Source: a virus
Length of the DNA: 28,646 bases
IMG/VR virus record: IMGVR_UViG_3300021255_000007
Direction: 5' to 3' (one strand)
Under the pieces are notes generated by a model. The model was not told where the DNA came from, made no database searches, and worked only from the letters and a program-made list of their open reading frames with translations. The translations under genes were made by a program, and so were the position numbers. Below, piece by piece: positions 4,501-28,646 of this stretch (the stretch's first letter is position 1; the number at the start of each line of letters is the position of its first letter).

Positions 4501-5204
4501 GGGGATCCTTTACTTTCAACGGTATAAACTCTCTGGACATGGGCCTCCAGATCGAAGGGGAACCGGAATACATCACCGGTTCCAAGATAGTAGAGCAGTA
4601 CAGCGTACCAGGACGGTCTGGTGCGCTGCTTTATGATACCGGGGCATATACCAACGCGGAGGCCGCTTATACCGTCTCGCTCGTGAAGAACGTAGAGAGC
4701 AAGCTTGCGTCCATAAGCTCATGGCTTGGCTCTCCGATAGGTTACGCACGGCTGGAGGACACCCAGGAAAGCAATTTTTTCAGGATGGCCTATTGCGACG
4801 AGCCTCTACAGTTTGAGAGAAAGTTGAAGCTCACCGGCAAGGGAATAATACACTTCAATTGCATGCCCCAGCGGTGGACAAAGAACGGCGATTTTTATAG
4901 GACGATTCCGAACGGCGGGGCACTGGTGAACGGGTACATGCCGGCGCGTCCGCTGATAGAGGTGACGGGCTCCGGTGCCGGTGTCCTCAACGTCGGCAGC
5001 ACGGTGGTAACCTTCTCCAATATACCGGACAAGCTGATTGTGGATTGTGAGAACTGCCTCGTCTACTGGGGAAATACAAACTACAGCGGCTTGGTAACGC
5101 TCTCCGGGTATGACTTCCCCGTTCTGGAGAAGGGCCAGACTAACTTTAGCTACAGCGGCGGAATCACAAAGATCAGCGTGAAACCGAGGTGGTGGACGTT
5201 ATGA
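4497..5204 (+). CDS. Distal tail protein (Dit, siphovirus tail component)
   Basis: ATGA overlap with the tape-measure stop. 235 aa with N-terminus 'MRGSFTFNGINSLDMGL', typical of phage tail family proteins after the TMP. Confidence 0.7.
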   Translation: MRGSFTFNGINSLDMGLQIEGEPEYITGSKIVEQYSVPGRSGALLYDTGAYTNAEAAYTVSLVKNVESKLASISSWLGSPIGYARLEDTQESNFFRMAYCDEPLQFERKLKLTGKGIIHFNCMPQRWTKNGDFYRTIPNGGALVNGYMPARPLIEVTGSGAGVLNVGSTVVTFSNIPDKLIVDCENCLVYWGNTNYSGLVTLSGYDFPVLEKGQTNFSYSGGITKISVKPRWWTL

Positions 5205-7483
5205 TACCTTGCTTATACGACAAAACGGCAACAGTTTTCTCCTCCCTGGGGAAGGGGATGCTGCGGAGCTGTACCAGTGCCATCGTGACCGAGGAGGTCA
5301 ACGGGATCTTCGAGCTGGAGCTTGAAATAGCAAAAGCGGATCCTCTGTATGGCGAGATCGAGGAGGGCAGCATCATCACGGCAATACCGTCCCCTTATCG
5401 AGGGCCGGAGCCTTTCCGGGTGTACAAGATCGAGAAGGCCATTGCAGGGGTTTCCACGGTATACGCCCACCATATCAGTTATGATCTGGCTGCCATCCCG
5501 GTGAAGCCTTTTATGGCTTCCAGTGCTGCGGCGGCCATGCAGGGACTCAGCGACAACGCGATGACTGATTGCCCTTTTACCTTCCTCACAACGAAGAGCA
5601 CAACGGCAAACTTCAATTTGGAGATCCCGCAGGCGATCCGCACCACGCTGGGCGGCGTAGAGGGCTCCATCCTGGACACCTATAGAGGTGAGTATGTTTT
5701 CGAGGGCCTGACCGTCACGCTGAAGCAGAACAGAGGGAGCAACCGTGGCTTCCAGGTGCGGTATAGAAAGAACCTCGTGGGCCTGACTGCGGAAGAAGAT
5801 TTTTCCGGAGTCGTTGACGGCATCCTTCCCTTTTGGACTGACGAAGAACAGGGAACGGTATACGGATCTATCCAGTGGAAGACCGGAAAGAGCTCCGGGC
5901 GTGTGGTGACGCACGACTACTCAGATGCCTACGAGGAAAAACCGACGGCGGCACAGCTCAACGCACGGGCGGCGCTCCTCGTAAACTCGTCCGGGTACGG
6001 CGAGCCGGATCTGAGCATCGAGGTGGATTTTATCAACCTGGAGCAAATGAGCGGCGGCGCCAGTCTCACCCAGTTGGAGCGGTGCGACCTTGGCGACACG
6101 GTTACCGTGATCGCGGAGCCAGTGGGCGTCACTAAGACGGCGGAAGTGGTGGCGATTGAGACAAACGTATTACTCGAAAAGTATAACAAGGTCACCATCG
6201 GAACCGTAAGAGCCGACATAGCCCAGACCATAGTAGAAAACCAGAAGGCAGCGGAGACCGGGATCAAGAACACGAAGAACTTCCTTGTCTCCGCACTGGA
6301 GGCGGCTACAGCACTGATAACCGGGGCAACGGGAGGAAACATAAAATACCTCTACAACGATGCCACGGGGCTGCCGTCCGCGATCCTTGCCATGGATACA
6401 GACGACACAGCCACGGCGCAGAACGTCCTAATTCTCAACTATCGGGGCTTTGGATTGTCCACAAATGGCATCAATGGGCCTTTTGACTATGCACTAACCG
6501 CAGAAAACGGCCTGAACGCGAGCCTCATTAAGGTGGGCATCCTCCAGGGCATCCGGGCGATCCTGGAGAGCGGCAGCGTCGGAGGCTGGGAGATCGCAAG
6601 CCGGTATATGTACAAGGACGTGGAAACGTCATCCGGAGACAAGTACCGCTTCTTCCTCCAGCCACCGGATGGCGTCCAAAATGTTTGGATGATTTCCGGA
6701 CAAATGTATAACCCGGATACTGGAAAGTATGAAGGAATTTGGCATATAAACGCAGACGGCAGCGCTTACCTGCCGGAAATCACGTCTGAGCTTATGGTTG
6801 ACCAGAAGCTCACGGCAGGCGGTGCGTTTGAAGCGATTGGAGCCGCGACCTTTGACTCCAGGGCGACTTTCAAGAACGGGCTTGATGTTACCGGCGGAAA
6901 CATGACCGTATCCAACGGGCTAGCAGCAAATCAGATTTTTTGTAACAACACTTTGTGGTTTAGGTGGGGCGGACAGGACACCGGGCGCATAGCTATGACA
7001 TCCGGGGATTATATGTATTTCGGAGGCACAGATGTAAACCGTTGGGTGTGTCTTGGGCAAGAAAGTTCCCACTGGGGTTTTTTCCCGTGGTCTGATACCT
7101 ATCTCGATCTGGGATTGTCCGGGAAGCGCTGGGACAACGTCTATGCCCAGACTGGGACGATACAGACCTCTGACAAGAGGCAGAAGAAGAGCATAAAGGC
7201 CCTGGGCCGTAAGGCTCTGGAATTCCTGGGCAATCTGAGGCCGGTGTCTTACCTCATGAAAAAAGGCACCTCAGGCCGCCGGCACTGGGGACTTATAGCG
7301 CAGGACGTCGAGATGGCAATGGCACTATCTGAGATGAACAGCATGGACTTCGCCGGCATCATCAAGGACGAAGAAGGCCGCTATGGTCTGAGATATGAGG
7401 AGTTTATAGCGCCGCTTATCCTGGCGGTGCAAGATCTCACGAAGCGCGTGGAGGCGCTGGAGGGAAAAAATGGTAATGGCTAA
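5201..7483 (+). CDS. Tail-associated lysin-like protein (Tal, prophage tail endopeptidase N-domain) with a C-terminal S74 intramolecular chaperone domain
   Basis: ATG 5201 overlaps the Dit stop (ATGA); the track's GTG start is at 5189. N-terminus 'MIPCLYDKTATVFSSLGKG...VTEEVNGIFELELE' is typical of Tal. The last ~107 aa (7160..7480), 'TSDKRQKK...GLIAQDVE...RYEEFIAPLILAVQDLTKRVEALE', match the Peptidase_S74 auto-cleaving chaperone pattern. Confidence 0.75.
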   Translation: MIPCLYDKTATVFSSLGKGMLRSCTSAIVTEEVNGIFELELEIAKADPLYGEIEEGSIITAIPSPYRGPEPFRVYKIEKAIAGVSTVYAHHISYDLAAIPVKPFMASSAAAAMQGLSDNAMTDCPFTFLTTKSTTANFNLEIPQAIRTTLGGVEGSILDTYRGEYVFEGLTVTLKQNRGSNRGFQVRYRKNLVGLTAEEDFSGVVDGILPFWTDEEQGTVYGSIQWKTGKSSGRVVTHDYSDAYEEKPTAAQLNARAALLVNSSGYGEPDLSIEVDFINLEQMSGGASLTQLERCDLGDTVTVIAEPVGVTKTAEVVAIETNVLLEKYNKVTIGTVRADIAQTIVENQKAAETGIKNTKNFLVSALEAATALITGATGGNIKYLYNDATGLPSAILAMDTDDTATAQNVLILNYRGFGLSTNGINGPFDYALTAENGLNASLIKVGILQGIRAILESGSVGGWEIASRYMYKDVETSSGDKYRFFLQPPDGVQNVWMISGQMYNPDTGKYEGIWHINADGSAYLPEITSELMVDQKLTAGGAFEAIGAATFDSRATFKNGLDVTGGNMTVSNGLAANQIFCNNTLWFRWGGQDTGRIAMTSGDYMYFGGTDVNRWVCLGQESSHWGFFPWSDTYLDLGLSGKRWDNVYAQTGTIQTSDKRQKKSIKALGRKALEFLGNLRPVSYLMKKGTSGRRHWGLIAQDVEMAMALSEMNSMDFAGIIKDEEGRYGLRYEEFIAPLILAVQDLTKRVEALEGKNGNG

Positions 7484-8117
7484 CTTTCCGGTGGGGAGCA
7501 AAAACCTCACCGTCTACGGGCTGTATCAGTACGACTATGGGCAGGTTCTGAGCGTTTACGGCCTGCCGCTCCCTGCGGTGGTGGAGTGTCAGATCAGCCT
7601 CCAGAGCGTCGGAGGTACCACCGAGAGCGTGGCCGGCGTGGTCGAGAATGACGTGCTCAGCGTGGACATACCTGACACCTATCTGGCTCAGGATGTAGAG
7701 ATGAACTACAACGTCTATGTCTTTATCTACGTCACCACGGAAGCCAGTGGCACAACGGTCTACAAGGTCACCCTGCCGGTTACTGCGAGGCCTATGCCTG
7801 AGGGCTATGTACCAGGAGAGACGTCACCTTTTGCAACCGTCATTGAAACGGTGACGGAGCTCATGGAGGAGGCCAAGGATGCGGCAACACTTTCGGAAAG
7901 TTACGCAGTTGGAGGCACCGGCACCAGAGCCGGCGAGGACTACGATAACAGTAAATACTATTCCGAGATGGCGCAACAGGCCGCCACCGGAGCAGGCTAT
8001 GTATCCTTCGAAATCGTTTACCCTGGCTATCTGCACATGTATCGCACGGATAACCTGGAAGATAGCCTTGATTTTGCCATCAATGAGGCCGGAGAGTTGG
8101 AGGTAGTAATGTCATGA
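7470..8117 (+). CDS. Tail fibre-associated structural protein (function unknown)
   Basis: RBS GGAGGG 5 nt upstream. 215 aa. It carries a 'YQYDYGQVL' N-terminal motif and a fibre-like 'SESYAVGGTGTRAGEDYDNSKYYSEMAQQAA' segment, and lies between Tal and the large fibre gene. Confidence 0.5.
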   Translation: MVMANFPVGSKNLTVYGLYQYDYGQVLSVYGLPLPAVVECQISLQSVGGTTESVAGVVENDVLSVDIPDTYLAQDVEMNYNVYVFIYVTTEASGTTVYKVTLPVTARPMPEGYVPGETSPFATVIETVTELMEEAKDAATLSESYAVGGTGTRAGEDYDNSKYYSEMAQQAATGAGYVSFEIVYPGYLHMYRTDNLEDSLDFAINEAGELEVVMS

Positions 8118-10699
8118 GAGATATCAACCTTGGAAGAGTAACAGCTTACGCGGACGCAGTAGCAGCCGGGTACACCGGAACGCGGGAACAGTTTGCGGTT
8201 GATCTGGCCAACGCGGCGACTTATGCCGGAGAAGCCGGAGCGAGCGCAGAAGCAGCGGCAGCCAGTGAGACGGCGGCGGCAAACAGCGCAGAAGCCGCAG
8301 AGGCAGCGGCGCAGGTAGCGGCAGGAGCGGAAGACAGCGTACACGCGGACGCTCTGGCGGCGCAGGAAGCCAAGGCGGCGGCGCAGGCATCTGAGGAGAC
8401 AGCAGTAAGCAAGGCCGGCGAAGCTGCCAACAGTGCCGACTCCGCGAGAAACAGCGCAAGCGCAGCGTCTTCCAGCGCGTCGGCGGCGGCTACCAGCGAG
8501 CAGAATGCTTCCGGATCCGCAACAGCGGCGGCGGGATCTGCTACGGCGGCGGCAGCCAGTGAGACGGCGGCAGCAGAATCCGCAGAGGAAGCAGCGGAAA
8601 GCCTGGGAGAGGTGCAGGCGGCTGAGACCTCCGCACTCACCAACATCGACACGGCAAAAACCACCGCCCTGTCTGAGATCCAGACCAAAGGAGAGGAAAC
8701 CCGGGCATCTATCCCGGCGGACTATACCGCCCTGAGCGATGACGTCAATGACTTAAAGAGCGATTTGGAAAAGTATGACAATCCGTTCGAAGAGACAATA
8801 CCTGGTTATACTAGTGGTATCATCGGTATCAGTATTATTGATCCTGCTGAATCTAATTACACGTCATATCGGATAAGTGCCATCAGAAAAAATTCGTCAT
8901 GGCACTGGTTTATGACATTACAAGGATATAACGGTACAGATTGGGTTAATATTGACAATATCGCAAGTCAATACAGTGCAGGCGCTGTTTATCCTATGGT
9001 TGAAACGCTTTTCTCAAATTATAACAAGTACGCTGTTGTCATAGACTGGAACTATGTACGAACAGAAGACATTTCAACATCCGGAATTACCGAGATTGTT
9101 CTGAAAAATACAGTTGTCAACAAACCGTTTGTCAATGCTCTGGTAAAAATCAACACTAACCAGACCGATATTGCGAACCTGACAACAAATGAACAGATGT
9201 ACAATAGTGTATTTTCCGTGCCTGTCAACAGTAACGCACTTGGAATTGTTGACATCAACCTTTATAATCCATCATTTACCAACTATGAGAAATACCGCAT
9301 AAACATTCTCAGGCATAACTCAAGTTATCATTTACATCTGGTATTACAGGGTTGTATCGGTGAAACATGGACGAATATTGATTCAATTCTCGTCCGTGCA
9401 GAGAACGCACCTGAACCATTGCCTGCTGTGGAAGTTCTTGATAGCACTTATCACAGATTTACTGTGACAATTATATGGGCAATGATGGGGACATTGACTT
9501 TAACTGGACTGGATTATCAGCTTAAAAACAGCATCGTCAATCGTACACAGATAGCCTTACAAACACGGGTTGAAGATATTTCTAATATTCCTTCATTCGA
9601 ACTTGCTGACCACATCAAACATGTTGTTACTGTCAAGCCTGACGGTACGGGGGACTATACGACTATTGCCGATGCCTATGCTGCAATAACAGACAGTGCA
9701 TGGGATAATCAATATGAAATCATTGTTTATCCTGGAACGTACAATGAAAACAATCTCCAGCCCCCTGCATATACTCATACGCATGGCATCTATCCTATGC
9801 AGACGATTGTTGACAGCAGTGGTTTGTTTGACCCAGAAAATCCTGATTTAAGTGTATTTGATCAGGGGCACGCACCATCTAAATTATCAAACATGGTAAT
9901 CAGATCTCAAACAAAATACTGTGTGCATCAGGATGTCGAGTTAAAGGGTGTAACGTTAGTCAACGAAAACTTGTACTGTATCAGATTGACAGGCGGCAGC
10001 AGCGAAACGTCAGTAATCGGGATCGGTGCTGATTTTGACGGTGCTAAATTTGTATGGAGAAACTGCACGTTTGTAAATGGAGCAGTGGCGGCACATACTA
10101 ATCCTAATAACTTGCCTAATGCAAATCAGCATATCATTTACGAGAACTGTATATTTGTTGACGCTTATGTGTCCCTAATGGTAGCAGGCATCGGAGGCGG
10201 CGCAAGTGGTAACACATTTGGAGAGTATGTGTGCGAAATTAAGGGATGCACAGTGAACGAGGGAAGATCTGGATTAAATTTGAAGTTTGGTTATCCTGTT
10301 AGCGGTATTGATGTCAATTTCCCCTGGCAGATTATTGGCGGAAATAATAACTTTGCGCCTGTGTTCAATAATTCGTCTGATACTAGTGCTGTTGATTTCT
10401 GGGACGCTATCAGCACAACAGATAAAACTTATGCTATTGCTGCTGAAACAATAGCAAAGGGAAGTTTTGTGGCATTTGACGGAACAAAGGCAACAAGCGC
10501 AACAGATACCAGTTTTATTGCCGGACTTGCTGTTTCTGATGGTGCGCAAAATGATAGGGTGCAAGTGTGGAAAGCGCCGTTTGTTTACACTGGAAACAAT
10601 GGCGAATACGGACTCGATGCAACAGGCAACTTAGATTCCGGAGCATCAAATAAAATAGGCAGAGTATTCAACAATATATTCTATCCGTTTTATGGCTGA
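8114..10699 (+). CDS. Tail fibre / receptor-binding protein: Ala-rich stalk, two tandem homologous domains, C-terminal parallel beta-helix (depolymerase-like) domain
   Basis: 861 aa. Residues ~40-200 form an Ala/Glu/Ser-rich stalk. Residues ~222-360 and ~361-490 are clearly homologous to each other. From 'VVTVKPDGTGDYTTIADAYAAI' onward there are periodic rungs: 'NMVIRS','NENLYCIRL','WRNCTFVNG','YENCIFVDA','IKGCTVNEG'. Confidence 0.75.
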   Translation: MRDINLGRVTAYADAVAAGYTGTREQFAVDLANAATYAGEAGASAEAAAASETAAANSAEAAEAAAQVAAGAEDSVHADALAAQEAKAAAQASEETAVSKAGEAANSADSARNSASAASSSASAAATSEQNASGSATAAAGSATAAAASETAAAESAEEAAESLGEVQAAETSALTNIDTAKTTALSEIQTKGEETRASIPADYTALSDDVNDLKSDLEKYDNPFEETIPGYTSGIIGISIIDPAESNYTSYRISAIRKNSSWHWFMTLQGYNGTDWVNIDNIASQYSAGAVYPMVETLFSNYNKYAVVIDWNYVRTEDISTSGITEIVLKNTVVNKPFVNALVKINTNQTDIANLTTNEQMYNSVFSVPVNSNALGIVDINLYNPSFTNYEKYRINILRHNSSYHLHLVLQGCIGETWTNIDSILVRAENAPEPLPAVEVLDSTYHRFTVTIIWAMMGTLTLTGLDYQLKNSIVNRTQIALQTRVEDISNIPSFELADHIKHVVTVKPDGTGDYTTIADAYAAITDSAWDNQYEIIVYPGTYNENNLQPPAYTHTHGIYPMQTIVDSSGLFDPENPDLSVFDQGHAPSKLSNMVIRSQTKYCVHQDVELKGVTLVNENLYCIRLTGGSSETSVIGIGADFDGAKFVWRNCTFVNGAVAAHTNPNNLPNANQHIIYENCIFVDAYVSLMVAGIGGGASGNTFGEYVCEIKGCTVNEGRSGLNLKFGYPVSGIDVNFPWQIIGGNNNFAPVFNNSSDTSAVDFWDAISTTDKTYAIAAETIAKGSFVAFDGTKATSATDTSFIAGLAVSDGAQNDRVQVWKAPFVYTGNNGEYGLDATGNLDSGASNKIGRVFNNIFYPFYG

Positions 10700-10789
10700 T
10701 TTTTCCAATGCTTAAAAGCACCATTTAAGAGACTTGACCATCTTGCTGGCATCAGCCAAAAGGTAGCAAGTTTGTAGCAAGTTGGTATC

Positions 10790-10817
10790 ATGTTCCCGGC
10801 AGAAATGTCGGGAACAT
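10790..10817 (+). terminator. Stem-loop downstream of the fibre gene (possible weak terminator)
   Basis: Perfect 9-bp inverted repeat ATGTTCCCG / CGGGAACAT with a 10-nt loop, followed by only TTT. Confidence 0.35.
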
Positions 10818-10960
10818 TTCACGCCCAGGCTTGCGTAAGATGCGGATCATCTACGCGAGCCCACGCAAATGATTGAGTCAACAACTTAGTCAAAAACCAT
10901 TAACTCAGTAAATGACGTGGATAATGACTTTGATAATGACTTGGATAATGAGGGGAAAAC

Positions 10961-11335
10961 ATGGAACAGATTCACTTTACGTCAGCCTATTGGCGGTTCC
11001 TGCTTCCGGCCTTTGCCGCCGGCGCGGACATCCTGACCGGACTCCTCCAGGCCGGTATAAACAACTGCTATAACAGCTCCGTCATGAGGAAGGGCCTCTA
11101 CCGCAAACTGGGAGAGCTGGCCTGCGTGGTCATGGCCTACGTGGTTTCTATCGGCGTGTCTCTGCCGGTGGACATAACCGCCTTCGTGGCCTTGTATATC
11201 GTGGTGATGGAGTTTATAAGCGTCCTGGAAAACCTCAGCGCTGCGGGGGTGCCGTTCCCGGTCTGGATCCTGCGGAAGCTTAAGAAGGCCGCCGATAAGC
11301 TGACGGAAGAGCCAAAGGAGGAGGGAACGGAATGA
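10961..11335 (+). CDS. Holin (phage_holin_4 / LL-H-like family)
   Basis: 124 aa with hydrophobic helices, an 'ADILTGLLQA' motif, 'MEFISVLENLSAAGVPFP', and a charged C-terminal tail. It sits directly upstream of the endolysin with an ATGA overlap. Confidence 0.8.
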   Translation: MEQIHFTSAYWRFLLPAFAAGADILTGLLQAGINNCYNSSVMRKGLYRKLGELACVVMAYVVSIGVSLPVDITAFVALYIVVMEFISVLENLSAAGVPFPVWILRKLKKAADKLTEEPKEEGTE

Positions 11336-12114
11336 GAGACGTGACGCAGTTACACCCGGAACTTCAGGAGAAGATTGCAAAGCTGAGACTCATGTGTGAG
11401 GCTGAGGGCCTTGCGCTGGGGATCGGGGAGTGTCTTCGGACGGTGGCGGAACAGGATCAGCTCTATGCGCAGGGGCGTACCGCTCCGGGGCCGGTCGTAA
11501 CTTATGCCAGAGGATCAACTTATGCCTCACAGCATCAATGGGGGATCGCGTTCGATATCTTCCAGAACATCCCCGGCCATGCCTATGATGACGTTGGTTT
11601 CTTCCGGAACGTGGCGACCATGGCCAAGAGCCTGGGCCTTGCGTGGGGCGGTGACTGGACGAGCCCGGTGGACATGCCTCACTTCTACCTCCCGTACTGG
11701 GGCGACACCCCTACAACCCTCAAACGTCAGTATGTTGTGCCTGAGCGATTTTTTGTCACCTGGGACAGAGGGGCGGAGAAGCTGGAGGTAGACGGATGGG
11801 CAGGGCCTAAAACCGTGCGGCGCCTACAAGAGGTCTTTGGTACTCAGGTAGACGGCGTGATTACAGACCAGTACGTTGTTTACAGGGACGACAACCCCGG
11901 CCTGTGTTCCGTGGAGTGGGTGCGGATGCCGGTATATGGCTCCGCCTTGGTGAGGGCGATTCAGGAGATGGTGGGGGCGGACATAGATGGAGTGATCGGG
12001 CCGGCGACCATCTCAGCCATGCAAGTCTACTTTGGCACTCCGGTAGACGGTTGCATTTCTGGGCCGTCTGCGCTTATCATGGCCATACAAGACTGGCTTA
12101 ACAAACACAGCTAA
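11332..12114 (+). CDS. Endolysin: M15-family (VanY / L-alanyl-D-glutamate peptidase-like) catalytic domain plus two PG_binding_1-like repeats
   Basis: Zinc-ligand motifs 'SQHQWGIAFD' and 'VDMPHFY'. The C-terminal repeats are 'VDGWAGPKTVRRLQEVFG' and 'IDGVIGPATISAMQVYFG'. Confidence 0.85.
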   Translation: MRDVTQLHPELQEKIAKLRLMCEAEGLALGIGECLRTVAEQDQLYAQGRTAPGPVVTYARGSTYASQHQWGIAFDIFQNIPGHAYDDVGFFRNVATMAKSLGLAWGGDWTSPVDMPHFYLPYWGDTPTTLKRQYVVPERFFVTWDRGAEKLEVDGWAGPKTVRRLQEVFGTQVDGVITDQYVVYRDDNPGLCSVEWVRMPVYGSALVRAIQEMVGADIDGVIGPATISAMQVYFGTPVDGCISGPSALIMAIQDWLNKHS

Positions 12115-12162
12115 TACTTCATTATAGCCTCGGCTTTTTTTATTTGCAAAGGCATAAAGATA

Positions 12163-12180
12163 GGCGGGTCTTCACCCGCC
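12163..12180. terminator. Bidirectional intrinsic terminator between the convergent endolysin and minus-strand genes
   Basis: GC-rich hairpin GGCGGGT-cttc-ACCCGCC. It is followed by 'tccttttatt' on the + strand and by 'tatctttatg' on the - strand. Confidence 0.65.
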
Positions 12181-12185
12181 TCCTT

Positions 12186-12413
12186 TTATTCCTTTTCCCA
12201 ACAGACTCCGACCTTTATGCCGGTGTTCTCGTATATCATCCGGGCAATGTCGCGGAAGGTGAGCGTTTCAAGCTCCGCCTCCTCATTGCCGTCCTCGTCT
12301 ATCGTGGTCTTCTCCACGACCACCGTGCACCTCTGGCGACCTGGCCAGAATACCGTTATAAATCCGTCTTCGGTCGAGATCCTTGCGCCTTGGGACAGTT
12401 CTACTGTGTGCAT
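12186..12413 (-). CDS. Hypothetical 75-aa protein (gene X) downstream of the integrase
   Basis: ATG at 12413..12411 is preceded by a strong RBS (AAAGGAGGAAAGA-ATG on the - strand). The track ORF extends to a GTG at 12476, but that extension covers the inverted repeat and has no RBS. No recognisable motifs. Confidence 0.55.
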   Translation of the reverse strand: MHTVELSQGARISTEDGFITVFWPGRQRCTVVVEKTTIDEDGNEEAELETLTFRDIARMIYENTGIKVGVCWEKE

Positions 12414-12434
12414 TCTTTCCTCCTTTGTCTTGCA

Positions 12435-12476
12435 GTGCTTTTTGATATCATCCATGTGGATAGGATCAAAAAACAC
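12435..12476. other. Candidate attP core for the serine integrase (imperfect 20-nt inverted arms around a central TG)
   Basis: GTGCTTTTTGATATCATCCA-TG-TGGATAGGATCAAAAAACAC. 16 of 20 arm positions are complementary and the central dinucleotide (12455..12456) is non-palindromic. It starts immediately after the int stop codon (12476..12478). Confidence 0.4.
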
Positions 12477-13792
12477 TATAAAAAAATGAGCTCAATGTGC
12501 CGGTCATCGAAGAACCGGATTTCCTTCAGGAGACCGCGCCACAGGTAACGGCGCTCCTGCATCGTGAGGGAGCTTATCAGGGTTCCGATGTCCTCAACGG
12601 CAAGGACTCCTTCCAGGGCGGAGGTGTCCGGCGGTGCCTCTTCGACATCCAGCGCCGCGAGCTCTCCCTCTAGTCCTTCTCGATCCTGGCGGTACTCCTC
12701 CAGTCCGATCAGCTCCGCAAGATATAACTCCTTCAGGCGGTCTATCTTTCTCTTGATAGCCGCCTTTTGCTTTTCCGTGTCCTTCTTCACCTCCTTTCTG
12801 GCCTGAGCCTCAACAATGACCTTTTCGGCTTCCTGCTTGACCTTGGCTATAAGGTACTCCTCTAGGACTGCCTCGCTGATTTGCTTTTTGTTTGTGCAGC
12901 GGCGCGGCGGCACGTAGTAGCACGGGCATCGGTATGTCGTGCGGTTGTGCGTAAAAACCGTGGCCATCCTGTGCCCGCATACACCGCACCGAAGGAGCCC
13001 GGTGAAAAGGTAATCCCTCTTTGCCGCTGCCGAAACGTTCATAGCGAGCTTCCGCTGTACATCCTCGAAAACGGCCTTGTCTATGATGGGCTCGCAGTAG
13101 TCTGAGTTTCCTCGATGCTCTCCGATATACTTCCGGTTCCGGAGTAGGCGCTTTAGGTTCTGCTTCTGACGCAACAGGCCAATGCGCTGACCGTACCGGG
13201 CGGCCTCGTTGAGGCTCCCACACTGGCAGTAGTAATCAAAGACCTTTCGGATGATTTCAGCCTTTTCCGGGACGACCACAAGGTGCTTGTCCTGGATCCG
13301 GTAGCCGAAGGGCACCTTGCCGGTCACGGCCTCACCCTGGGCAACTTTGTAGTCCATCACTGCGCGGATCCTGGCAGAGGTGTTTTCCGCCTCGAACTGG
13401 GCCACGCTCATCATCTGATTGACCACCAGACGCCCGGCGGGGGTGGTGGTGTCATAGATGGGCTCCCAGATTGCCAGCCATGTAACTCCGTACTTGTCAA
13501 GAACCTCCTGCGTGGCCGTGTAGTGCCGGATGGATCGAAACCAACGGTCAAGCTTTGTAAAGATTATCATGTCCACCTTGCCAGCCTTTATGTCATCGAT
13601 GAGCCTTTGCAGCTCCCCGCGCTCCTGGAACTTCCTGCCTGAAACCCCGTCGTCTATGTACTCCCCGGCGCTTATCATGTTGTCGTGCTCTTCCAGGTAC
13701 TTCCGCAGGGCGTCTCTCTGCGCTGGTACCGAGTCGCCTTCTTTTGCTTGGCGATCCGTGGAGACTCGGATATAGCAGGCTGTTTTTATCAC
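12476..13792 (-). CDS. int: Large serine recombinase (phage integrase)
   Basis: 438 aa with a GTG start. It has the N-terminal resolvase catalytic motif 'YIRVSTDRQ', a recombinase domain, the Cys cluster 'CGVCGHRM...YRCPCYY', and a C-terminal coiled coil. Confidence 0.9.
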   Translation of the reverse strand: MIKTACYIRVSTDRQAKEGDSVPAQRDALRKYLEEHDNMISAGEYIDDGVSGRKFQERGELQRLIDDIKAGKVDMIIFTKLDRWFRSIRHYTATQEVLDKYGVTWLAIWEPIYDTTTPAGRLVVNQMMSVAQFEAENTSARIRAVMDYKVAQGEAVTGKVPFGYRIQDKHLVVVPEKAEIIRKVFDYYCQCGSLNEAARYGQRIGLLRQKQNLKRLLRNRKYIGEHRGNSDYCEPIIDKAVFEDVQRKLAMNVSAAAKRDYLFTGLLRCGVCGHRMATVFTHNRTTYRCPCYYVPPRRCTNKKQISEAVLEEYLIAKVKQEAEKVIVEAQARKEVKKDTEKQKAAIKRKIDRLKELYLAELIGLEEYRQDREGLEGELAALDVEEAPPDTSALEGVLAVEDIGTLISSLTMQERRYLWRGLLKEIRFFDDRHIELIFL

Positions 13793-14256
13793 CTCTTGCC
13801 CACCTCCTTACACATGGCGTCGTAACTATTCAGCTTTCTTAGTAAGTTCACGAGAAGTATTAAGTTTTCTGAGGACGCCCTTTCCGCGAGATTTTTTAGT
13901 TTCTCAAGAAAATACTCTTTGTCCTCTTCGTTGAGTAGTTCACCATAGTCTGACGGGTCGTCTTTTCCGTCATACATCTCTGGTGGCATCGTCGAATCTG
14001 CCATCGCGTCCTTCATATCAAGATATTTGTCCCAACTCTCCGGAGACACGCCTTGGATTGGGGCGTCTTCTCCCATGATGGCCTCCAGTGGAACCTGGAA
14101 ATAGTCCGCGATAACTTGCAACTTTCCGACTTTCGGGGTGTATTTTCCCTGTTTCCAGGCCGTGAGCGTGGACGTAGTTACCCCGGTAGCTCTGGAGACT
14201 GTGCCGGGCTTAACTCCATGCTCTTCGCACAGCTTAATAAAGTTCTCGTAAAACAT
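13789..14256 (-). CDS. CI-like repressor (XRE-family HTH)
   Basis: 155 aa with N-terminal HTH 'VSRATGVTTSTLTAWKQGKYTPKVGKLQVIADYF'. It is divergent from a Cro-like gene. Its stop overlaps the int GTG (GTGA). No S24 peptidase motifs are visible in the C-terminal half. Confidence 0.75.
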   Translation of the reverse strand: MFYENFIKLCEEHGVKPGTVSRATGVTTSTLTAWKQGKYTPKVGKLQVIADYFQVPLEAIMGEDAPIQGVSPESWDKYLDMKDAMADSTMPPEMYDGKDDPSDYGELLNEEDKEYFLEKLKNLAERASSENLILLVNLLRKLNSYDAMCKEVGKR

Positions 14257-14419
14257 GCCGACCTCCTAAGAAAAACTAAGATTTATTAGTTGACAAACTA
14301 AGAAAACTGTGCTATCTTCTCAGGGAAGCGCAGGAAACTTAGTTATTGAGTTGATGAGTTTGTTTTCTGAGGTAATTATATAAGGTTTCTTAGCGTCCGT
14401 CAAGAAGGAAGGTGATACG
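14257..14419. promoter_or_regulatory. Lysis-lysogeny switch region with repeated operator-like half-sites
   Basis: CTAAGAAA occurs at 14266 and 14298 (+) and as TTTCTTAG at 14387. A variant, AAACTTAGTT, is at 14334. The region lies between divergent HTH genes. Confidence 0.6.
14290..14318 (+). promoter_or_regulatory. Sigma-A-type early rightward promoter candidate
   Basis: TTGACA (14290..14295), a 17-nt spacer containing an operator half-site, then TATCTT (14313..14318). It lies upstream of the Cro-like gene. Confidence 0.5.
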
Positions 14420-14605
14420 TTGTATAAACGTTTTGAGGAATTGATAGAAGAGAAGAACATTACGCCTTACAAGGTGGCGAAGGAAACGGGGATCAGTACA
14501 GCGACTATATCAAGCTGGAAACAAGGTAAGTACACCCCAAAGGTGGATAAGCTACTTAAGATTGCAGACTACCTCGAATGTGACGTGATGGAGCTGTTGC
14601 GATGA
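14420..14605 (+). CDS. Cro-like XRE-family HTH regulator
   Basis: 61 aa. TTG start after RBS GAAGGAAGGTG. The HTH 'VAKETGISTATISSWKQGKYTPKVDKLLKIADYL' is a close paralogue of the repressor HTH. Confidence 0.75.
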   Translation: MYKRFEELIEEKNITPYKVAKETGISTATISSWKQGKYTPKVDKLLKIADYLECDVMELLR

Positions 14606-14730
14606 ATACGAAGCTACTCTTTGAACTGCTTGGGGAGATCCTGAGCCGGAAATATCAAGCAGATGTCACTGTGAAGCCGGCGGGAGGAAATGATGAAAAG
14701 GGAAAATCTGAGGATCATCGGATCGCATGA
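14602..14730 (+). CDS. Small hypothetical ORF (42 aa)
   Basis: ATG overlaps the Cro-like stop (ATGA). It is below the track size cut-off and was translated by hand: MNTKLLFELLGEILSRKYQADVTVKPAGGNDEKGKSEDHRIA. Confidence 0.3.
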   Translation: MNTKLLFELLGEILSRKYQADVTVKPAGGNDEKGKSEDHRIA

Positions 14731-15010
14731 GGAGAAGGCCGTGCCGACGGGAAAGTACACCGTCACCAGGTACGGCAACAAGAAACCGGTCACCAAGCTA
14801 GAGACCTGGGTAAAAACCCCGTGCGGATCTATGAGGTTGTCAGTTTGGAAAACGCTCTACCGTGAGGCGCTGGAGGAAGAAGGGCAGCTTGATCTTCTGG
14901 AAAAGGTCATTGACCAGGTGAAACGGCTTCCCTTCGTAGATGATCCGGAGCTCTACGCGATGGAGTGCATTGATTGCGGCGCATACCTTTCCTGGGATGC
15001 CACCCAGTGA
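14690..15010 (+). CDS. Hypothetical protein (106 aa)
   Basis: ORF on the early-operon strand, with GGGAGGAA just upstream of tandem ATGs. No recognisable motifs apart from a C-terminal 'CIDCG'. Confidence 0.5.
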   Translation: MMKRENLRIIGSHEEKAVPTGKYTVTRYGNKKPVTKLETWVKTPCGSMRLSVWKTLYREALEEEGQLDLLEKVIDQVKRLPFVDDPELYAMECIDCGAYLSWDATQ

Positions 15011-15672: not shown

Positions 15673-16341
15673 ATGAATGATTTGAAGTTTCCGCTGCTTC
15701 GGGCAAAAGATATAGATTGCCGGGTGGCAACCGTGAAGGAGAACGGGCTGAGCCTGCTCCTTTACAAGAACGCGCGGGTGGATATGGCCCTACTGGATAA
15801 GACTGTCGGGCCTCTGAACTGGAAGCGTGAGCACTCCCGCGACAACAAGAATTGTACGGTGTCGATCTGGGACGACATCAAACAGGAGTGGGTTAGCAAG
15901 GAGGACACTGGCACCGAGTCCAACGCCGAAGCTGAGAAAGGATTGGCCTCGGACTCCTTCAAACGGGCCTGCTTCAACTGGGGGATAGGCCGGGAGCTGT
16001 ACACCGCTCCCTTCATCTGGATCCCGGCGGGAATGTGCGAGATCAAGCGGAAAAGCAACGACAGCTTTGTTTGTTATGACCGATTTGAGGTCGAAGACAT
16101 ATCCTACAACCAGGACAAAGAAATCACCTTTCTCCTCATAGTGAAAATCGACAGAGGTAACCGGAAACCGGTCTACTCCTTCGGCCAGAAGGAAAAGGAG
16201 CCGGAATACATCACGGAAAAGGAGGCCATGGTCTTGCGGAACCTTTGCGAAAAAAAGGGGTACATTCCTGAGAAGGTTTTCCCCGCGTGGCCGAAGCTGA
16301 CCGCTGAGCAGTACACCGAAGCCCTGAGGAGGCTGCAATGA
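15673..16341 (+). CDS. Rad52/Sak-family single-strand annealing protein
   Basis: 222 aa with the motif 'EKGLASDSFKRACFNWGIGRELY' and the N-terminal pattern 'DIDCRVATV...YKNARVDMALLDKTVGPLNW'. Confidence 0.8.
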   Translation: MNDLKFPLLRAKDIDCRVATVKENGLSLLLYKNARVDMALLDKTVGPLNWKREHSRDNKNCTVSIWDDIKQEWVSKEDTGTESNAEAEKGLASDSFKRACFNWGIGRELYTAPFIWIPAGMCEIKRKSNDSFVCYDRFEVEDISYNQDKEITFLLIVKIDRGNRKPVYSFGQKEKEPEYITEKEAMVLRNLCEKKGYIPEKVFPAWPKLTAEQYTEALRRLQ

Positions 16342-16883
16342 CCTTCGAAGGCCAGCTTGCCGGCATGTCGAGAGACTTTAAGACCGGCAAGCCGGTGATT
16401 CAGTTCACGGTTGCCGGGGATCCGTCCCCGCTTGATGACCTGCGGGAGAAGCCGCTGCGGATCGAGATCCGGGAGAACAAGAGCAAGCGCAGCCTTGACG
16501 CTAACTCTTACTACTGGACTCTCCTCAATAAGCTTGGCGACAAGCTGCGGACTTCCAAGGCCTACCTGCATAACCTCATGCTCAGGCGGTACGGACAGCC
16601 GGAGACGGTTGACGGCCAGACGGTCTATGTGGTCATAAAGGACACCGAGGAGGCACAGAAGAAGGTTGAGGAGGATGAATATACCCACTTGAAGCCCACA
16701 AATGAGGTGCGAGTGGGGAAAGGCGGCACTGTTTACCGCACTTATATCCTCCTCCGTGGGAGTCACAGCTACAACTCCCTGGAAATGGCGATATTGATAG
16801 ACGGGGTTGTTTCTGAGTGCAAGGAGCACAACATAGAGACACTTCCACCCGAAGAATTGGAGAGGCTGAAGAATGAGAGATGA
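16338..16883 (+). CDS. NinB/Orf-like recombination mediator (tentative)
   Basis: 181 aa. 'KSKRSLDANSYYWTLLNKLG' resembles the lambda NinB 'RSLDQNRKLWA' core. It is coupled (ATGA) to the Sak-like gene. Confidence 0.4.
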   Translation: MTFEGQLAGMSRDFKTGKPVIQFTVAGDPSPLDDLREKPLRIEIRENKSKRSLDANSYYWTLLNKLGDKLRTSKAYLHNLMLRRYGQPETVDGQTVYVVIKDTEEAQKKVEEDEYTHLKPTNEVRVGKGGTVYRTYILLRGSHSYNSLEMAILIDGVVSECKEHNIETLPPEELERLKNER

Positions 16884-17103
16884 TACCCTTGTAATTTTCA
16901 CATACCGCAGAAACGGACACCTCAACATGATCGTTGAGCCCGCGAGCACCGTGACCTTCCAGAACGACGGAAAGGATTTTGTCCTTGAGATCGGCGCGAC
17001 GTGGAAGTTTGACAGCTCCGAAGTGTTCCCGGTTTACCTGGAGGTCGCCGGCATCGTGCTGTTAGACCGCAGAGCGGAAGACCTCTGCAATGGGTTCGAA
17101 TGA
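16873..17103 (+). CDS. Hypothetical protein (76 aa)
   Basis: An ORF in the operon with short overlaps on both sides. No motifs recognised. Confidence 0.45.
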   Translation: MRDDTLVIFTYRRNGHLNMIVEPASTVTFQNDGKDFVLEIGATWKFDSSEVFPVYLEVAGIVLLDRRAEDLCNGFE

Positions 17104-17228
17104 TCGGGCGGGAAGGCGTCTGTTTCCTCTGCGGACGGTATGGCCGACTGGATACGCATCACATTTTTGGAGGCCCTAACCGAACGAGGGAGGAGTTCAT
17201 GCGCCGGTACGGAAGGAGTTGGTTGTAA
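17100..17228 (+). CDS. Small Cys/His protein (42 aa), possibly a shortened zinc-finger protein
   Basis: ATGA overlap with the upstream stop. Hand translation: MIGREGVCFLCGRYGRLDTHHIFGGPNRTREEFMRRYGRSWL. It carries a CxxC...HH motif. Confidence 0.4.
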   Translation: MIGREGVCFLCGRYGRLDTHHIFGGPNRTREEFMRRYGRSWL

Positions 17229-17539
17229 TGGAAGCATGTATTGAGTATGACCTGAACTGGATCAAAGGCCGCGACTATGTAGAGGTCACTTTTCCCTCCA
17301 GCACGAAGGAGAAGAACCTGCTGAAGGCGATGGCAGCGGAGGGCGTTCCCGGTGTCGTGATTACTGCGGAGAACCGTGACGGTTCTATCGTGGGCCACGT
17401 GCCTCTGAGCTGCGTCCTGTTCCGGAGACCTCCGAAGAAGGTGGAGGTTACCGAGGAGATGCGTGCTCGCTTGGCACGGATGACCGCGATACGGGAGGAA
17501 AAGAGGGTAAAAACGGACGAAAACGGCGAAGAGGTATAA
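17228..17539 (+). CDS. Hypothetical protein (103 aa)
   Basis: ATG 17228 lies 9 nt after RBS GGAAGGAG and overlaps the upstream TAA. The track's TTG start is at 17219. Confidence 0.5.
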   Translation: MEACIEYDLNWIKGRDYVEVTFPSSTKEKNLLKAMAAEGVPGVVITAENRDGSIVGHVPLSCVLFRRPPKKVEVTEEMRARLARMTAIREEKRVKTDENGEEV

Positions 17540-17599
17540 ATTATCGTCCGAATGAGAAAATGCCGTTTTAGACACGGCGATCAAGACGGAGGTGAAGGA

Positions 17600-17968
17600 T
17601 TGAACAAAGTTGTATTGGTGGGCCGTCTGTGCCAGGAACCGGAAGTCAGATACACGAACGACCAGAAGCCTATAGCGCGGTACACGCTGGCGGTAGATCG
17701 CAACAAGGACGAGGCGGATTTTATCCCCTGCGTTGCCTTCCAGCGCTCTGCGGAGTTCGCTCAGAAGTACCTGCACAAGGGCACTAAGATCCTTGTAGAG
17801 GGCCGGATGCACTCCGGAAGCTATACCAACCGGGAGGGCAAGAAGGTCTACACCATGGATGTTTTTATAGACCGGCATGAATTTGTCGAGAGTCGGAAGT
17901 CTGCGGAAGACGCCGACGGTTTTATGAACATCCCGGAGGGAGACGTGGAGGGGTTGCCTTTTGAGTAA
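17600..17968 (+). CDS. ssb: Single-stranded DNA-binding protein
   Basis: TTG 17600 after RBS GGAGGTGAAGGA gives the canonical N-terminus 'LNKVVLVGRL'. It has OB-fold motifs and an acidic C-terminal tip 'DVEGLPFE'. The track's ATG 17552 would add an atypical 16-aa leader. Confidence 0.85.
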   Translation: MNKVVLVGRLCQEPEVRYTNDQKPIARYTLAVDRNKDEADFIPCVAFQRSAEFAQKYLHKGTKILVEGRMHSGSYTNREGKKVYTMDVFIDRHEFVESRKSAEDADGFMNIPEGDVEGLPFE

Positions 17969-18296
17969 GATGCAGCGAGACAAGGGGGCACGTTTTGAGC
18001 GTGAGCTTGCCGAGGCCCTTAAGGGGTACGGCTACGACTGCCGGCGCACCTGCCAGAAGGACGGGAGAGTGGAGGCTGACGTGATCGGCCTCCCTGGCAT
18101 CCACATAGAGGCCAAGCATCAGGAGCAAATGAGGCTTTACGACTGGATGCACCAGGCGGAAAAGGATGCACGTCCGGGAGAGATCCCGGCGGTTTTCCAC
18201 CGGAAGAACCGGGAGGAGACTCTGGTAACCGTGCCGCTGTGGGCGTTTATGGAACTGTTTAAGAGGTGGGGGAGAGATGGAGACGGTAAGAGATAG
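17961..18296 (+). CDS. PD-(D/E)XK Holliday-junction resolvase-like nuclease
   Basis: 111 aa with 'KGARFERELAEAL..GY' and 'EADVIGLPGIHIEAKHQE' (D...ExK). An alternative ATG start is at 17970. Confidence 0.5.
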   Translation: MSKMQRDKGARFERELAEALKGYGYDCRRTCQKDGRVEADVIGLPGIHIEAKHQEQMRLYDWMHQAEKDARPGEIPAVFHRKNREETLVTVPLWAFMELFKRWGRDGDGKR

Positions 18297-28355: not shown

Positions 28356-28646
28356 TGTGTTTGATGACGAGCTTAAGGGGCTGATTTATGCAGCCGCGTC
28401 GGATCTCAGAATCGCCGGCATTTCCGGGGCGGATCCCACAACAGAGGATCCGCTGATTATCCGGGCAATAATCACCTACTGCAAGGCCCACTTCGGGCAG
28501 GCGGAGGAAGGAGAGTATGACCGGCTTAAGGCCTCGTATGACGAACAGAAGGCCCAGATGCAAACGGCCACGGGGTACGGACTCGATGAAGAGGAACGAT
28601 ATAGCGGTGCTGGTATCTCAGACGATGGTACTGGATCGGTTTGGGG
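28315..28646 (+). CDS. Head-tail connector (gp6-like 'DNA packaging' family), N-terminal part; continues at 1..129
   Basis: ATG 28315 follows GAGGAG. 'MLEKVKNALRITTNVFDDELKGLIYAAASDLRIAGI...IIRAIITYCKAHFG' is the typical pattern of this family. The frame is open to the window end. Confidence 0.7.
   Translation, partial: MLEKVKNALRITTNVFDDELKGLIYAAASDLRIAGISGADPTTEDPLIIRAIITYCKAHFGQAEEGEYDRLKASYDEQKAQMQTATGYGLDEEERYSGAGISDDGTGSVW
28540..28646. repeat. Right copy of the 107-bp terminal direct repeat
   Basis: Identical to 1..107. Confidence 0.9.

Follow-up and report, generated by a model that had tools for sequence, protein, structure and literature searches.

Organization of the fibre locus

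The virus record IMGVR_UViG_3300021255_000007 is a DNA of 28,646 nucleotides (nt), called the window here, and it is the genome of a temperate HK97-like siphophage. Positions 1-107 are identical to positions 28540-28646, and this 107-nt terminal repeat indicates that the window is a circularly assembled, complete phage genome of ~28.5 kb. The genes are arranged in the order terminase, portal, protease, capsid, connectors, tape measure, Dit, Tal, a 215-residue protein, fibre, holin, and M15 endolysin. Downstream of the endolysin are a large serine integrase, repressor-type regulators, and then a recombination and replication block. The subject of this work is the fibre gene, which sits in the tail module after the Dit/Tal baseplate genes and before the lysis genes. 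The fibre consists of an N-terminal anchor with an Ala-rich stalk, a hinge with the sequence DLKSDL, and a distal tip. Coordinates of these features are listed in Table 1. An initial annotation had described a fibre open reading frame (ORF) at 8114-10699, the motif IPADYTALSDDVNDLKSDLEKY, a 261-nt gap, and a holin start at 10961, and all of these are as described. It had also proposed that the AT-rich distal part of the gene, together with the gap behind it, is a receptor-binding module recently imported from a lower-GC donor.

Base composition of the fibre gene

The GC content was calculated in 300-nt windows. It is 0.64-0.69 at 8100-8700, 0.37-0.44 over 8850-10950, and 0.57 from 10950. The values by segment are 0.647 for 8114-8744, 0.406 for 8745-10699, 0.425 for the spacer at 10700-10960, and 0.543 for the remaining window. 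A two-break maximum-likelihood fit placed the left break at 8747 and the right break at 10979, with support within 2 units of log likelihood (lnL) at 8720-8764 and 10948-11006, respectively. The gain over a model with no break was ~72 lnL. These breaks bear out the GC switches that had been reported at ~8745 and ~10960. Outside the AT-rich block, 1-kb windows never fall below 0.48 GC across the 28.6-kb window.

Codon usage changes along with GC. The GC content at third codon positions (GC3) falls from 0.66-0.77 in the neighbouring genes and 0.62 in the stalk to 0.37 in the tip. TTA accounts for 31% of the Leu codons in the tip compared to 2% in backbone genes, AAT for 54% of the Asn codons compared to 20%, and ATT for 44% of the Ile codons compared to 17%. 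The AT-rich codons named in the initial annotation are therefore enriched in the case of tta, aat, and att, but ata is not (20% of the Ile codons in the tip compared to 28% in backbone genes). The stalk was correctly described as GC-rich and Ala-rich, with Ala making up 35% of its residues. Its GC of 0.65 overshoots the backbone value, and the meaningful contrast is therefore between the tip at 0.41 and the backbone at 0.54. Asn, Ile, and Tyr are abundant in the tip. GC3 and the shift in synonymous codons show that the GC drop is not due to amino acid composition alone. The tip thus has the properties of atypical DNA: GC, GC3, and codon usage all depart from the rest of the genome, and the borders are sharp.

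A milder second GC dip (0.48) lies at 13500-15000, over the repressor/early-regulator region beside the integrase.

Relatives of the stalk and the tip

A search with the whole 861-residue protein returned ~30 proteins (P0004-P0037) that match only about the first quarter of the fibre at 50-66% identity, and two proteins that match only the last three quarters at 59-63% identity. The contigs encoding P0004-P0037 are all from syntenic siphophages, and the C-terminal parts of these fibres are unrelated. With the low-complexity filter off, the alignments of the N-terminal relatives end most commonly at residue 218. More than 30 fibres share the sequence ...SIPADYTxLSNDVDDLKSDL and diverge from the very next residue, which agrees with the earlier placement of the border at a conserved linker motif.

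The tip has a different set of relatives. A search with residues 221-861 identified 28 of them, and an exhaustive profile-free search identified ~200 representative clusters. The tip is 53-63% identical to P0002, P0003, and P0106-P0110, and 48% identical to P0113. In the full-length tip relatives, homology starts at query residues 196-223. The N-terminal parts ahead of the homologous tips are 24-242 residues long and mutually unrelated. Six fetched contigs bearing tip relatives differ from the window in gene content and range from 0.31 to 0.61 in GC. The tip-bearing phages include siphophages with other tape-measure/Dit genes and, in the case of the 31% GC phage, a phage with T4-type portal and capsid genes. 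Separate similarity searches of the two halves, as proposed in the initial annotation, thus lead to different nearest relatives in different phage lineages. Because the halves match different lineages, the shared nearest relatives that would have spoken against an import were not found.

Tip replacement in related phages

The genomes nearest to the window in backbone sequence are L005 and L010, which have the same gene order and are 71-75% identical in nucleotides over nearly the whole length. L009, L011, and L012 are more distant. L009 and L011 keep the order of the tail module and have extra genes between fibre and holin. Nucleotide homology between the window and L005, L009, and L010 stops at 8766. 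It restarts at 10956-10961, the holin start, in L009 and L011, or at 11330, at the endolysin, in L005 and L010.

Replacement of the tip is seen directly when these relatives are compared with one another. L005 and L010 are 95.9% identical up to nt 622 of the fibre gene and 97.2% identical downstream, and their tips are unrelated. Identity runs through TCGTTAAAGAGCGATTTAA, that is, up to TTAAAGAGCGATTTAA, and collapses at the next base. It restarts exactly at TAAAGCACCATTTAACGAACG (TAAAGCACCATTTAA / TAAAGCACCATTTAAC), abutting or overlapping the two different stop codons. L011 and L012, which are 91.9% identical, break at the same DLKSDL hinge. The alternative cassettes that the initial annotation had suggested looking for therefore exist: related phages carry them at the same junction, even where the two members of a pair are 92-97% identical outside it. 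This replacement between near-identical genomes is an observation on the relatives, and the window itself is compared with them across the 71-75% identity of its own nearest backbones.

The hinge-coding DNA appears more conserved than the protein motif would require, as judged from the codons. The hinge Leu codon is TTA in 12 of 12 loci compared, AAG and AGC are kept in 9-11 of them, and most go on with GAT TTA. Among the 12 conserved Leu columns in a seven-locus codon alignment of the tip family, TTA is used in the hinge column alone, and no other column has a single codon in all seven loci. The hinge Lys codon is AAG, though the rest of the tip favours AAA. These data point to constraint or homogenisation at the DNA level beyond the protein motif.

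A second conserved sequence lies behind the fibre gene. This right motif has the consensus TTAAAG(C/G)AC(A/C)(C/A)TTTAA on the coding strand, 0-24 nt past the fibre stop. It is present in the window, L004, L005, L009, L010, L011, L014, L016, and L141, after unrelated tips in unrelated backbones, and it is weaker or farther out in L012, L001, and L013. The backbone GC of the carriers is 0.43-0.57, and the weaker L013 and L001 copies would widen this range to 0.31-0.61. Chance expectation for the motif is ~6 matches per 197 kb on both strands. The window copy is located 14 nt past the stop and has one extra A. The right motif is similar to TTAAAGAGCGATTTA, the DNA that codes for the hinge. The left motif of L005 and L010 is TTAAAG-AGCG-ATTTAA and their right motif is TTAAAG-CACC-ATTTAA; the two are identical at 12 of 16 positions and in direct orientation. 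The initial annotation had counted the full spacer as part of the import. This part of its proposal lacks support, and the spacer may not belong to the import; the conserved post-stop motif (10713-10728) marks the right edge of the cassette in the relatives.

IMG/VR was scanned with both motifs. In four of eight matches to the 18-nt left motif, the motif sits where the N-terminal and distal parts of a long fibre-like ORF meet, and two of these four ORFs end with TAAATAGACCTTTAAATCAG at the stop. A scan starting from this right-motif variant gave 14 loci. In eight of them the variant is located -5 to +37 nt from the stop of an ORF of 495-868 residues; the C termini of these eight ORFs differ, and five carry an in-frame left motif. 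The other six loci follow short ORFs. A right motif shortened to 14 nt follows a long ORF in 1 of 121 cases among the matches listed, which equals random positions. The 14-nt motif thus behaves like background in IMG/VR, and the right motif is therefore not a general phage signal. Eighty loci from a search with the 215-residue protein belong mostly to a distant low-GC lineage without either motif. An RNA hairpin formed by the right motif was considered and rejected, because its energy of -2.3 kcal/mol is no better than that of shuffled sequences. Taken from the sequences, the two motifs are most likely the crossover points, with direct support from the L005/L010 pair. The right motif is possibly a crossover site or a regulatory element. 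The pairing of boundary motifs is possibly the one new feature of the locus.

GC content of fibre tips

The GC of fibre tips was compared with that of the phages that carry them. All seven distinct tips found on the window's stalk have a GC of 0.37-0.41, and their backbones are at 0.52-0.57. The window's tip family has a GC of 0.38-0.46 in backbones of 0.31, 0.37, 0.43, 0.47, and 0.61. In the 31% GC phage, the tip is GC-richer than the backbone. Tip GC was 0.41 ± 0.023 in 40 related fibre genes, with a slope on backbone GC of -0.05 (p = 0.37); this set includes many close relatives of one another, and the genes are hence not independent samples. Distant low-GC lineages share the 215-residue upstream protein and the first ~28 fibre residues. 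Their tips (~0.40-0.45 GC) match their low-GC backbones, and there is therefore no GC step in these fibres. Because tip GC is constant whatever the backbone GC, low GC marks a shared tip pool and not the age of one event. The low tip GC is a steady-state trait of the common pool and not a timestamp.

Modular exchange with a lower-GC donor, as the initial annotation proposed, is consistent with the tip relatives in backbones of 0.31-0.47 GC, and the donor of the window's tip was very probably a lower-GC phage. The word "recently" in that proposal is not supported. The nearest tip relative is only 63% identical in amino acids and ~73% identical in nucleotides over 600 nt, and a megablast search among phage records gave no match that would represent a near-identical donor. 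Recency is for this reason not demonstrable, and a recent import is neither shown nor excluded. More generally, a GC drop within a fibre gene cannot be read as recency. The constancy of tip GC over backbones of 31-61% implies a shared, fast-moving gene pool. Such a drop is a practical marker of the receptor-binding part in higher-GC metagenomic phages. The modular exchange of receptor-binding proteins, by which phages switch targets, is itself well known; at this locus, the edges of the cassette are marked with unusual sharpness, and the tip family is hitherto undescribed.

Predicted structure and function of the tip

No Pfam or PHROG match above threshold was found for the tip. An AlphaFold2 model was built on 28 homologues and has a mean predicted local distance difference test score (pLDDT) of 85.5. 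The modelled tip consists of two β-sandwich domains, a short helix, a right-handed β-helix, and a C-terminal β domain. The two β-sandwich domains (~115 residues each) are an internal duplication (36% identity, E 1e-21). P0111 and P0112 have a single copy, which means that the tip itself is sub-modular.

The top ten fold matches in the PDB are nine pectin methylesterases and E. coli YbhC, all CE8-type β-helix proteins. These matches have a probability of 1.0 and E-values of 7e-7 to 5e-4, with template modelling (TM) scores of only 0.31-0.45 and root-mean-square deviations of 8-11 Å. The viral fold matches include Lactobacillus/Lactococcus phage tail or neck-passage proteins, phage "pectinesterases", and tailspikes. 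Like the CE8 pectin methylesterases that match it best (1GQ8, 1QJV, 8TNE), the tip has a predicted right-handed β-helix core and a start of the type VxVxxDGxGDYxTIxxA...GxYxE. The start of the β-helix, VVTVKPDGTGDYTTI...YPGTYNE, is a weak profile match to the pectinesterase N terminus. The score against PF01095 (CE8) is 16 bits at a gathering cut-off of 27 and covers only positions 2-42 of the profile. Sub-threshold matches to PF01095 were obtained for 6 of the 28 tip-family members, and more distant relatives are below threshold too. Membership in CE8 was rejected at the Pfam threshold. The tip also differs from CE8 enzymes in that the match is confined to the first 42 profile positions, the TM score is 0.45, and it sits in a fibre that also has β-sandwich and C-terminal domains. 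The catalytic residues of CE8 enzymes are a Gln-Asp pair (QDT), an Asp (DFIFG), and an Arg (GRPW). Throughout the tip family, H605 and D607 of CVHQD do not vary, and W738 of NFPWQ hardly does. The Asp in GADFDG varies, and a Phe stands where the Arg would be expected. Positions were equated by sequence order alone, and neither the Asp of the CE8 DFIFG motif nor the Arg of GRPW is clearly conserved. Because these other CE8 catalytic positions are not clearly kept, the domain is described as a CE8-like β-helix with putative activity.

The tips carried by one shared stalk (P0004-P0037) were assigned by Pfam as β-helix/pectate-lyase, GDSL/SGNH esterase, metallophosphatase, GDPD phosphodiesterase, polysaccharide deacetylase, and M14 peptidase. 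They are a probable catalogue of receptor-binding tips that process cell-wall polymers. The window's tip is probably glycan-directed, as its model suggests. Judging from fold and context, its most likely role is to recognise a polysaccharide in the wall of a Gram-positive host, perhaps with removal of ester groups, and thereby to set host range. Analogy with the enzyme tips on the same stalk leads to a similar suggestion, with binding to a cell-wall glycopolymer most likely and its de-esterification possible. We infer from its position, its fold, and this analogy that the tip is the receptor binder and host-range determinant. Together, a tip family of ~200 representative clusters with no Pfam model and a predicted pectin-methylesterase-like β-helix, and the enzyme tips on the stalk, point to processing of Gram-positive cell-wall polymers as a putative common adsorption strategy.

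Probable origin of the fibre

We conclude, with a probability of about 0.8, that the fibre has two ancestries and that a tip cassette from a pool of ~41% GC was joined in-frame at DLKSDL and ends most likely at the post-stop motif. Residues 1-218 would be an anchor and Ala-rich stalk that belong to the lineage itself and came down with the tail module, and residues 219-861 would be a cassette drawn from a pool that circulates among phages with unrelated backbones. The left splice would lie at the hinge (TTAAAGAGCGATTTG) and the likely right end at T(A)AAAGCACCATTTAA. The exchange could take place by recombination in or beside these two short, conserved stretches, when two phages infect one cell or when a phage meets a resident prophage, and selection would retain the in-frame products. 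The phage-encoded Erf/Rad52-type annealing protein, NinB/Orf, SSB, and resolvase probably assist. Within a lineage, the stalk would supply ample homology on the left, and the downstream flank would supply ~38 nt, as in L005/L010. Exchange between unrelated stalks may consist of rare microhomology events fixed by selection, or of a site-specific activity. Rad52-like phage recombinases carry out relaxed homologous recombination that yields mosaics (PMC3945230). The window is similar to those systems in that it encodes Erf/Rad52-like, NinB/Orf, SSB, and resolvase proteins and has mosaic joints at the ends of conserved stretches. It differs in that unrelated stalks share ~16 nt per side, compared to the ~30 bp minimum of Redβ-type recombination (PMC3945230).

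Several observations weigh against this conclusion. The ~16 nt of shared border sequence fall short of ~30 bp, and ordinary homologous recombination between unrelated backbones should therefore be inefficient. No near-identical donor or sister phage was found for this tip, and the exact protein occurs on one contig; the event itself is therefore inferred from relatives. Past the right motif there are ~230 nt of AT-rich DNA that the evidence assigns to neither module. Conservation of the hinge may be mainly protein-driven, and the post-stop motif could be regulatory and not a crossover site. The CE8 signature is below the Pfam threshold, and receptor binding and catalysis are predicted from the model.

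Two of the alternatives concern how far the cassette extends and how it moved. It is possible, if on the unlikely side, that the whole block at 8745-10960, with the tip, its 3' flank, and the full 261-nt spacer, was imported together from one low-GC donor. The spacer resembles the tip in GC (0.425), the maximum-likelihood fit puts the right break at 10979, L009 and L011 become homologous again only at 10956-10961, and the spacer has no detectable homologue in the fetched loci. However, the segment swapped between L005 and L010 ends at the post-stop motif, the backbone GC of L001 returns right after the stop of the closest tip relative, and intergenic DNA is AT-rich in general. In addition, GCAAGTT repeats and a hairpin like those before the homologous L009 holin suggest that the lysis module includes part of the spacer. 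The other alternative replaces general recombination by a dedicated site-specific cassette exchange, in which the partly palindromic TTAAAG-N4-ATTTAA motifs are recombinase sites and tips move as units, by analogy with integron cassettes and the Mu/P1/p15B invertase sites. The motifs flank the cassette in direct orientation with a 12/16 match in both L005 and L010, the synonymous codons of the hinge are conserved above the tip background, and efficient homologous recombination would require longer motifs (PMC3945230). The right-motif variant near the stops of long ORFs in 8 of 14 loci, five of them with an in-frame left motif, fits as well, as do the three motif copies that bracket accessory genes in L009 and the tyrosine recombinase beside the L011 fibre gene. 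These arguments leave the idea improbable, because the central 4-6 nt differ (AGCG on the left, CACC on the right), which most tyrosine or serine recombinases would not tolerate. The sole recombinase among the window ORFs scanned against Pfam is the 438-residue large serine integrase, the motif is not enriched after long ORFs in the general viral collection, distant lineages with the same fibre N terminus lack the two motifs, and no inverted alternative cassette was found in the window. A broader version, in which tips are portable cassettes between two TTAAAG-N4-ATTTAA signals, one that also encodes the hinge LKSDL and one next to the stop codon, and in which these signals act as dedicated crossover sites through either a recombinase or microhomology-guided annealing, is somewhat less doubtful and remains speculative. 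If it were true, a ~41% GC pool would plug into 31-61% GC phages too fast for the tips to equilibrate.

The two remaining alternatives deny that a transfer took place. Low GC might be intrinsic to fibre tips, through amino acid composition or AT-rich coding selection, in a gene that evolved in place. Tip GC is indeed ~0.41 in every lineage examined, and the tip is rich in Asn, Ile, and Tyr. We regard this explanation as very improbable, since GC3 and synonymous codons shift as strongly as GC at the first and second codon positions, tip homologues occur in unrelated phages, stalk homologues bear unrelated tips, near-identical phages differ only in the tip, and tip GC is above backbone GC in the 31% GC phage. 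A metagenome assembly chimera, in which the assembler joined two phages at short shared motifs, would account for an exact protein on a single contig and for junction sequences common to several phages. It is hardly credible, because both flanks come from the same backbone and two in-frame misjoins would be required, the shared 16-18 nt are shorter than usual assembly k-mers, and the contig is self-closing through its terminal repeat. The architecture also recurs in many independent assemblies, such as P0008 on 10 contigs from different samples.

If the fibre of two ancestries is accepted, the locus is a natural example of plug-and-play host-range evolution in uncultured temperate phages, presumably of the animal gut. 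The defined in-frame splice after DLKSDL and the defined 3' end could guide the engineering of chimeric fibres for these phages.

Comparison with other phage systems

In the modular tailspikes and fibres of Klebsiella, E. coli, Ackermannviridae, and Alteromonas phages, the N-terminal anchor is conserved, and the C-terminal domain, which binds the receptor or acts as a depolymerase, is exchanged horizontally (PMC10408124, PMC11414711, PMC10579305). The window's fibre is like these proteins in having a tail-tied N-terminal part and an unrelated β-helix-type C terminus common to distant phages, and near-identical phages differ only in the tip. It is different in four respects. The hosts are uncultured and probably Gram-positive. 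One stalk bears esterase, phosphodiesterase, phosphatase, deacetylase, and peptidase tips, and not only glycan lyases or hydrolases. Two short, conserved stretches of DNA mark the edges of the cassette. Tip GC stays at ~0.41 across backbones of 0.31-0.61.

Work by Tétart and colleagues in 1998 reportedly described swapping of T-even distal fibres and adhesins by recombination between conserved motifs, and the idea of "linker" sequences in phage evolution is said to come from Botstein's modular theory. Here too, short conserved sequences border exchangeable host-range segments and are proposed crossover points. The motifs at this locus, DLKSDL and TTAAAGAGCGATTTA, differ in that one is coding, one is non-coding and located past the stop, and the two are similar to each other; their role in crossover is putative. 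Proof that the paired motifs are crossover sites would give concrete support to the linkers long postulated for modular phage evolution.

According to PMC3945230, which cites Haggård-Ljungquist 1992 and Sandmeier 1992, 1994, the side tail fibre genes of Mu, P1, P2, λ, and p15B are exchanged among unrelated phages, and invertase crossover sites lie at the junction of the constant and variable parts. These fibres resemble the window's fibre in their constant N terminus, variable C terminus, short conserved junction DNA, and tips common to unrelated phages. In contrast, the window has no inverted alternative tip, inverted junction copy, or small invertase, and its motifs are direct. An invertible segment of the Gin/Cin/Min or shufflon type was looked for and not found: the motif occurs once, on the + strand, the spacer contains no ORF of at least 60 residues, and the only recombinase among the ORFs scanned is the large serine integrase. 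No reverse-transcriptase domain of a diversity-generating retroelement was detected in any ORF scanned, and no search was aimed at the template repeat. The paired similar motifs that flank the tip, and that coincide with the breakpoints in L005/L010, are at most candidate sites of an integron-type cassette. An integron-type cassette recombinase was rejected, since no tyrosine recombinase was detected among the window ORFs scanned and the motif cores AGCG and CACC are not identical.

Neighbouring genes and the spacer

The 215-residue protein encoded directly upstream of the fibre gene is conserved wherever this type of fibre N terminus occurs. It is syntenic in L005, L009, L010, L011, and L012, and it aligns in A3. 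A tblastn search of IMG/VR with query A3 gave 452 candidate stretches that encode a relative of this protein. Close relatives of the window's lineage are few in IMG/VR. A megablast search with 7400-11400 gave no DNA match to GenBank phages. Neither the tip alignment A1 nor the stalk alignment A2 led to a confirmed locus in species-representative genomes, and hence to a cultured host or a prophage context; the search patterns were narrow and the Ala-rich stalk was probably masked. A scan of JGI metagenomes gave the single locus L141. Several related contigs among L001-L016 have labels such as SHIW14 and STEW19, and several IMG/VR matches stem from a small number of related datasets; judging from the labels, these may be ruminant-gut metagenomes.

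Table 1. Features of the fibre locus and its surroundings. Positions refer to the window unless a related locus is named.
Feature	Position	Strand	Remarks
Tape measure (TMP)	2254-4500		
Dit	4497-5204		
Tal	5189-7483		Prophage_tail and Peptidase_S74 (chaperone domain)
215-residue tail protein	7470..8117	+	Directly upstream of the fibre gene; PHROG 16164 match
Fibre ORF	8114-10699	+	861 residues
N-terminal anchor and Ala-rich stalk, residues 1-212	8114..8749	+	Lineage-specific; GC 0.65; matches PHROG tail-fibre families
Hinge DLKSDL	8750..8767	+	Left border of cassette; its DNA TTAAAGAGCGATTTG at 8753-8767
Exchangeable fibre-tip cassette, residues 219-861 and stop	8768..10699	+	GC 0.41; GC3 0.37
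Two tandem β-sandwich domains, residues ~221-335 and 370-475	8774..9538	+	Predicted, AlphaFold2 model
Right-handed β-helix core, residues ~501-760	9614..10393	+	Predicted; pLDDT mostly >85
YPGTYNE	9728-9748		Within the β-helix
CVHQD	9920-9934		Within the β-helix; invariant H605, D607
C-terminal β domain, ~95 residues	10406..10693	+	Predicted; pLDDT ~95; separately matching stretch in many relatives
Post-stop motif TAAAAGCACCATTTAA	10713-10728	+	Candidate right border; sole match in window
AT-rich non-coding spacer	10729..10960	+	~230 nt after the right motif
Tandem repeat, GTAGCAAGTT(T/G) x2	10763-10784		
Stable hairpin, then short U run	10790-10817		-19.5 kcal/mol, z -4.9
12-nt repeat x3 (GATAATGAC..): AATGACGTGGAT / AATGACTTTGAT / AATGACTTGGAT	10911-10951		Abuts holin ribosome-binding site GAGGGG
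Holin (Phage_holin_4_1)	10961..11335	+	Pfam E 9e-19; backbone GC resumes here
Large serine integrase	12476-13792		438 residues; 1.8 kb from cassette
Recombination block	15673..18296	+	
Erf/Rad52-like annealing protein	15673-16341		
NinB/Orf	16338-16883		
SSB	17552-17968		
RusA/PDDEXK-type resolvase	17961-18296		
Right motif in L005	12251-12266		
Right motif in L010	12491-12505		
Right motif in L011	12285-12300		
Right motif in L014	5262-5277		
Right motif in L141	8646-8661		
Right motif in L009, three copies	9652-9667, 10007-10019, 10288-10300		Bracket two small accessory genes between fibre and holin

The spacer between the right motif and the holin gene contains no ORF of at least 60 residues. 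No Rfam family was found in it, and no homologue was detected in any fetched locus. A consensus scan of the spacer gave no canonical terminator and only a chance-level promoter match. The region with the tandem repeat and the hairpin (10763-10817) could act as a terminator, or as a control region that separates the late structural genes from the lysis genes, and the array of three 12-nt repeats could be operator-like. L009, which has the same type of holin, carries three copies of AAGTTGCAAT (GCAAGTT-type) and a hairpin at the equivalent place (~10330-10400). The alignment between the two regions is poor, and the likeness of the spacer to the pre-holin region of L009 is one of architecture only.

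In the relatives, the stretch from the fibre gene to the lysis genes is a hot spot for insertions. L011 has a tyrosine recombinase there (12441-13418, - strand). L009 has an RHH protein and a DUF6275 protein in this stretch (9719-10300), and a tyrosine recombinase after the endolysin (11717-12700). Nucleotide homology to L005 and L010 is also interrupted in the interior of Tal (6597-7093), just ahead of the Peptidase_S74 domain and without a GC drop, which suggests a second variable, fibre-like segment. A second mosaic joint lies at the holin. The window, L009, and L011 encode a Phage_holin_4_1 protein of 124-132 residues, which in the window is at backbone GC. L005 and L010, which are otherwise closer to the window, have an 82-residue ORF and a 63-residue r1t-type holin at this position (L005 12425-12861).

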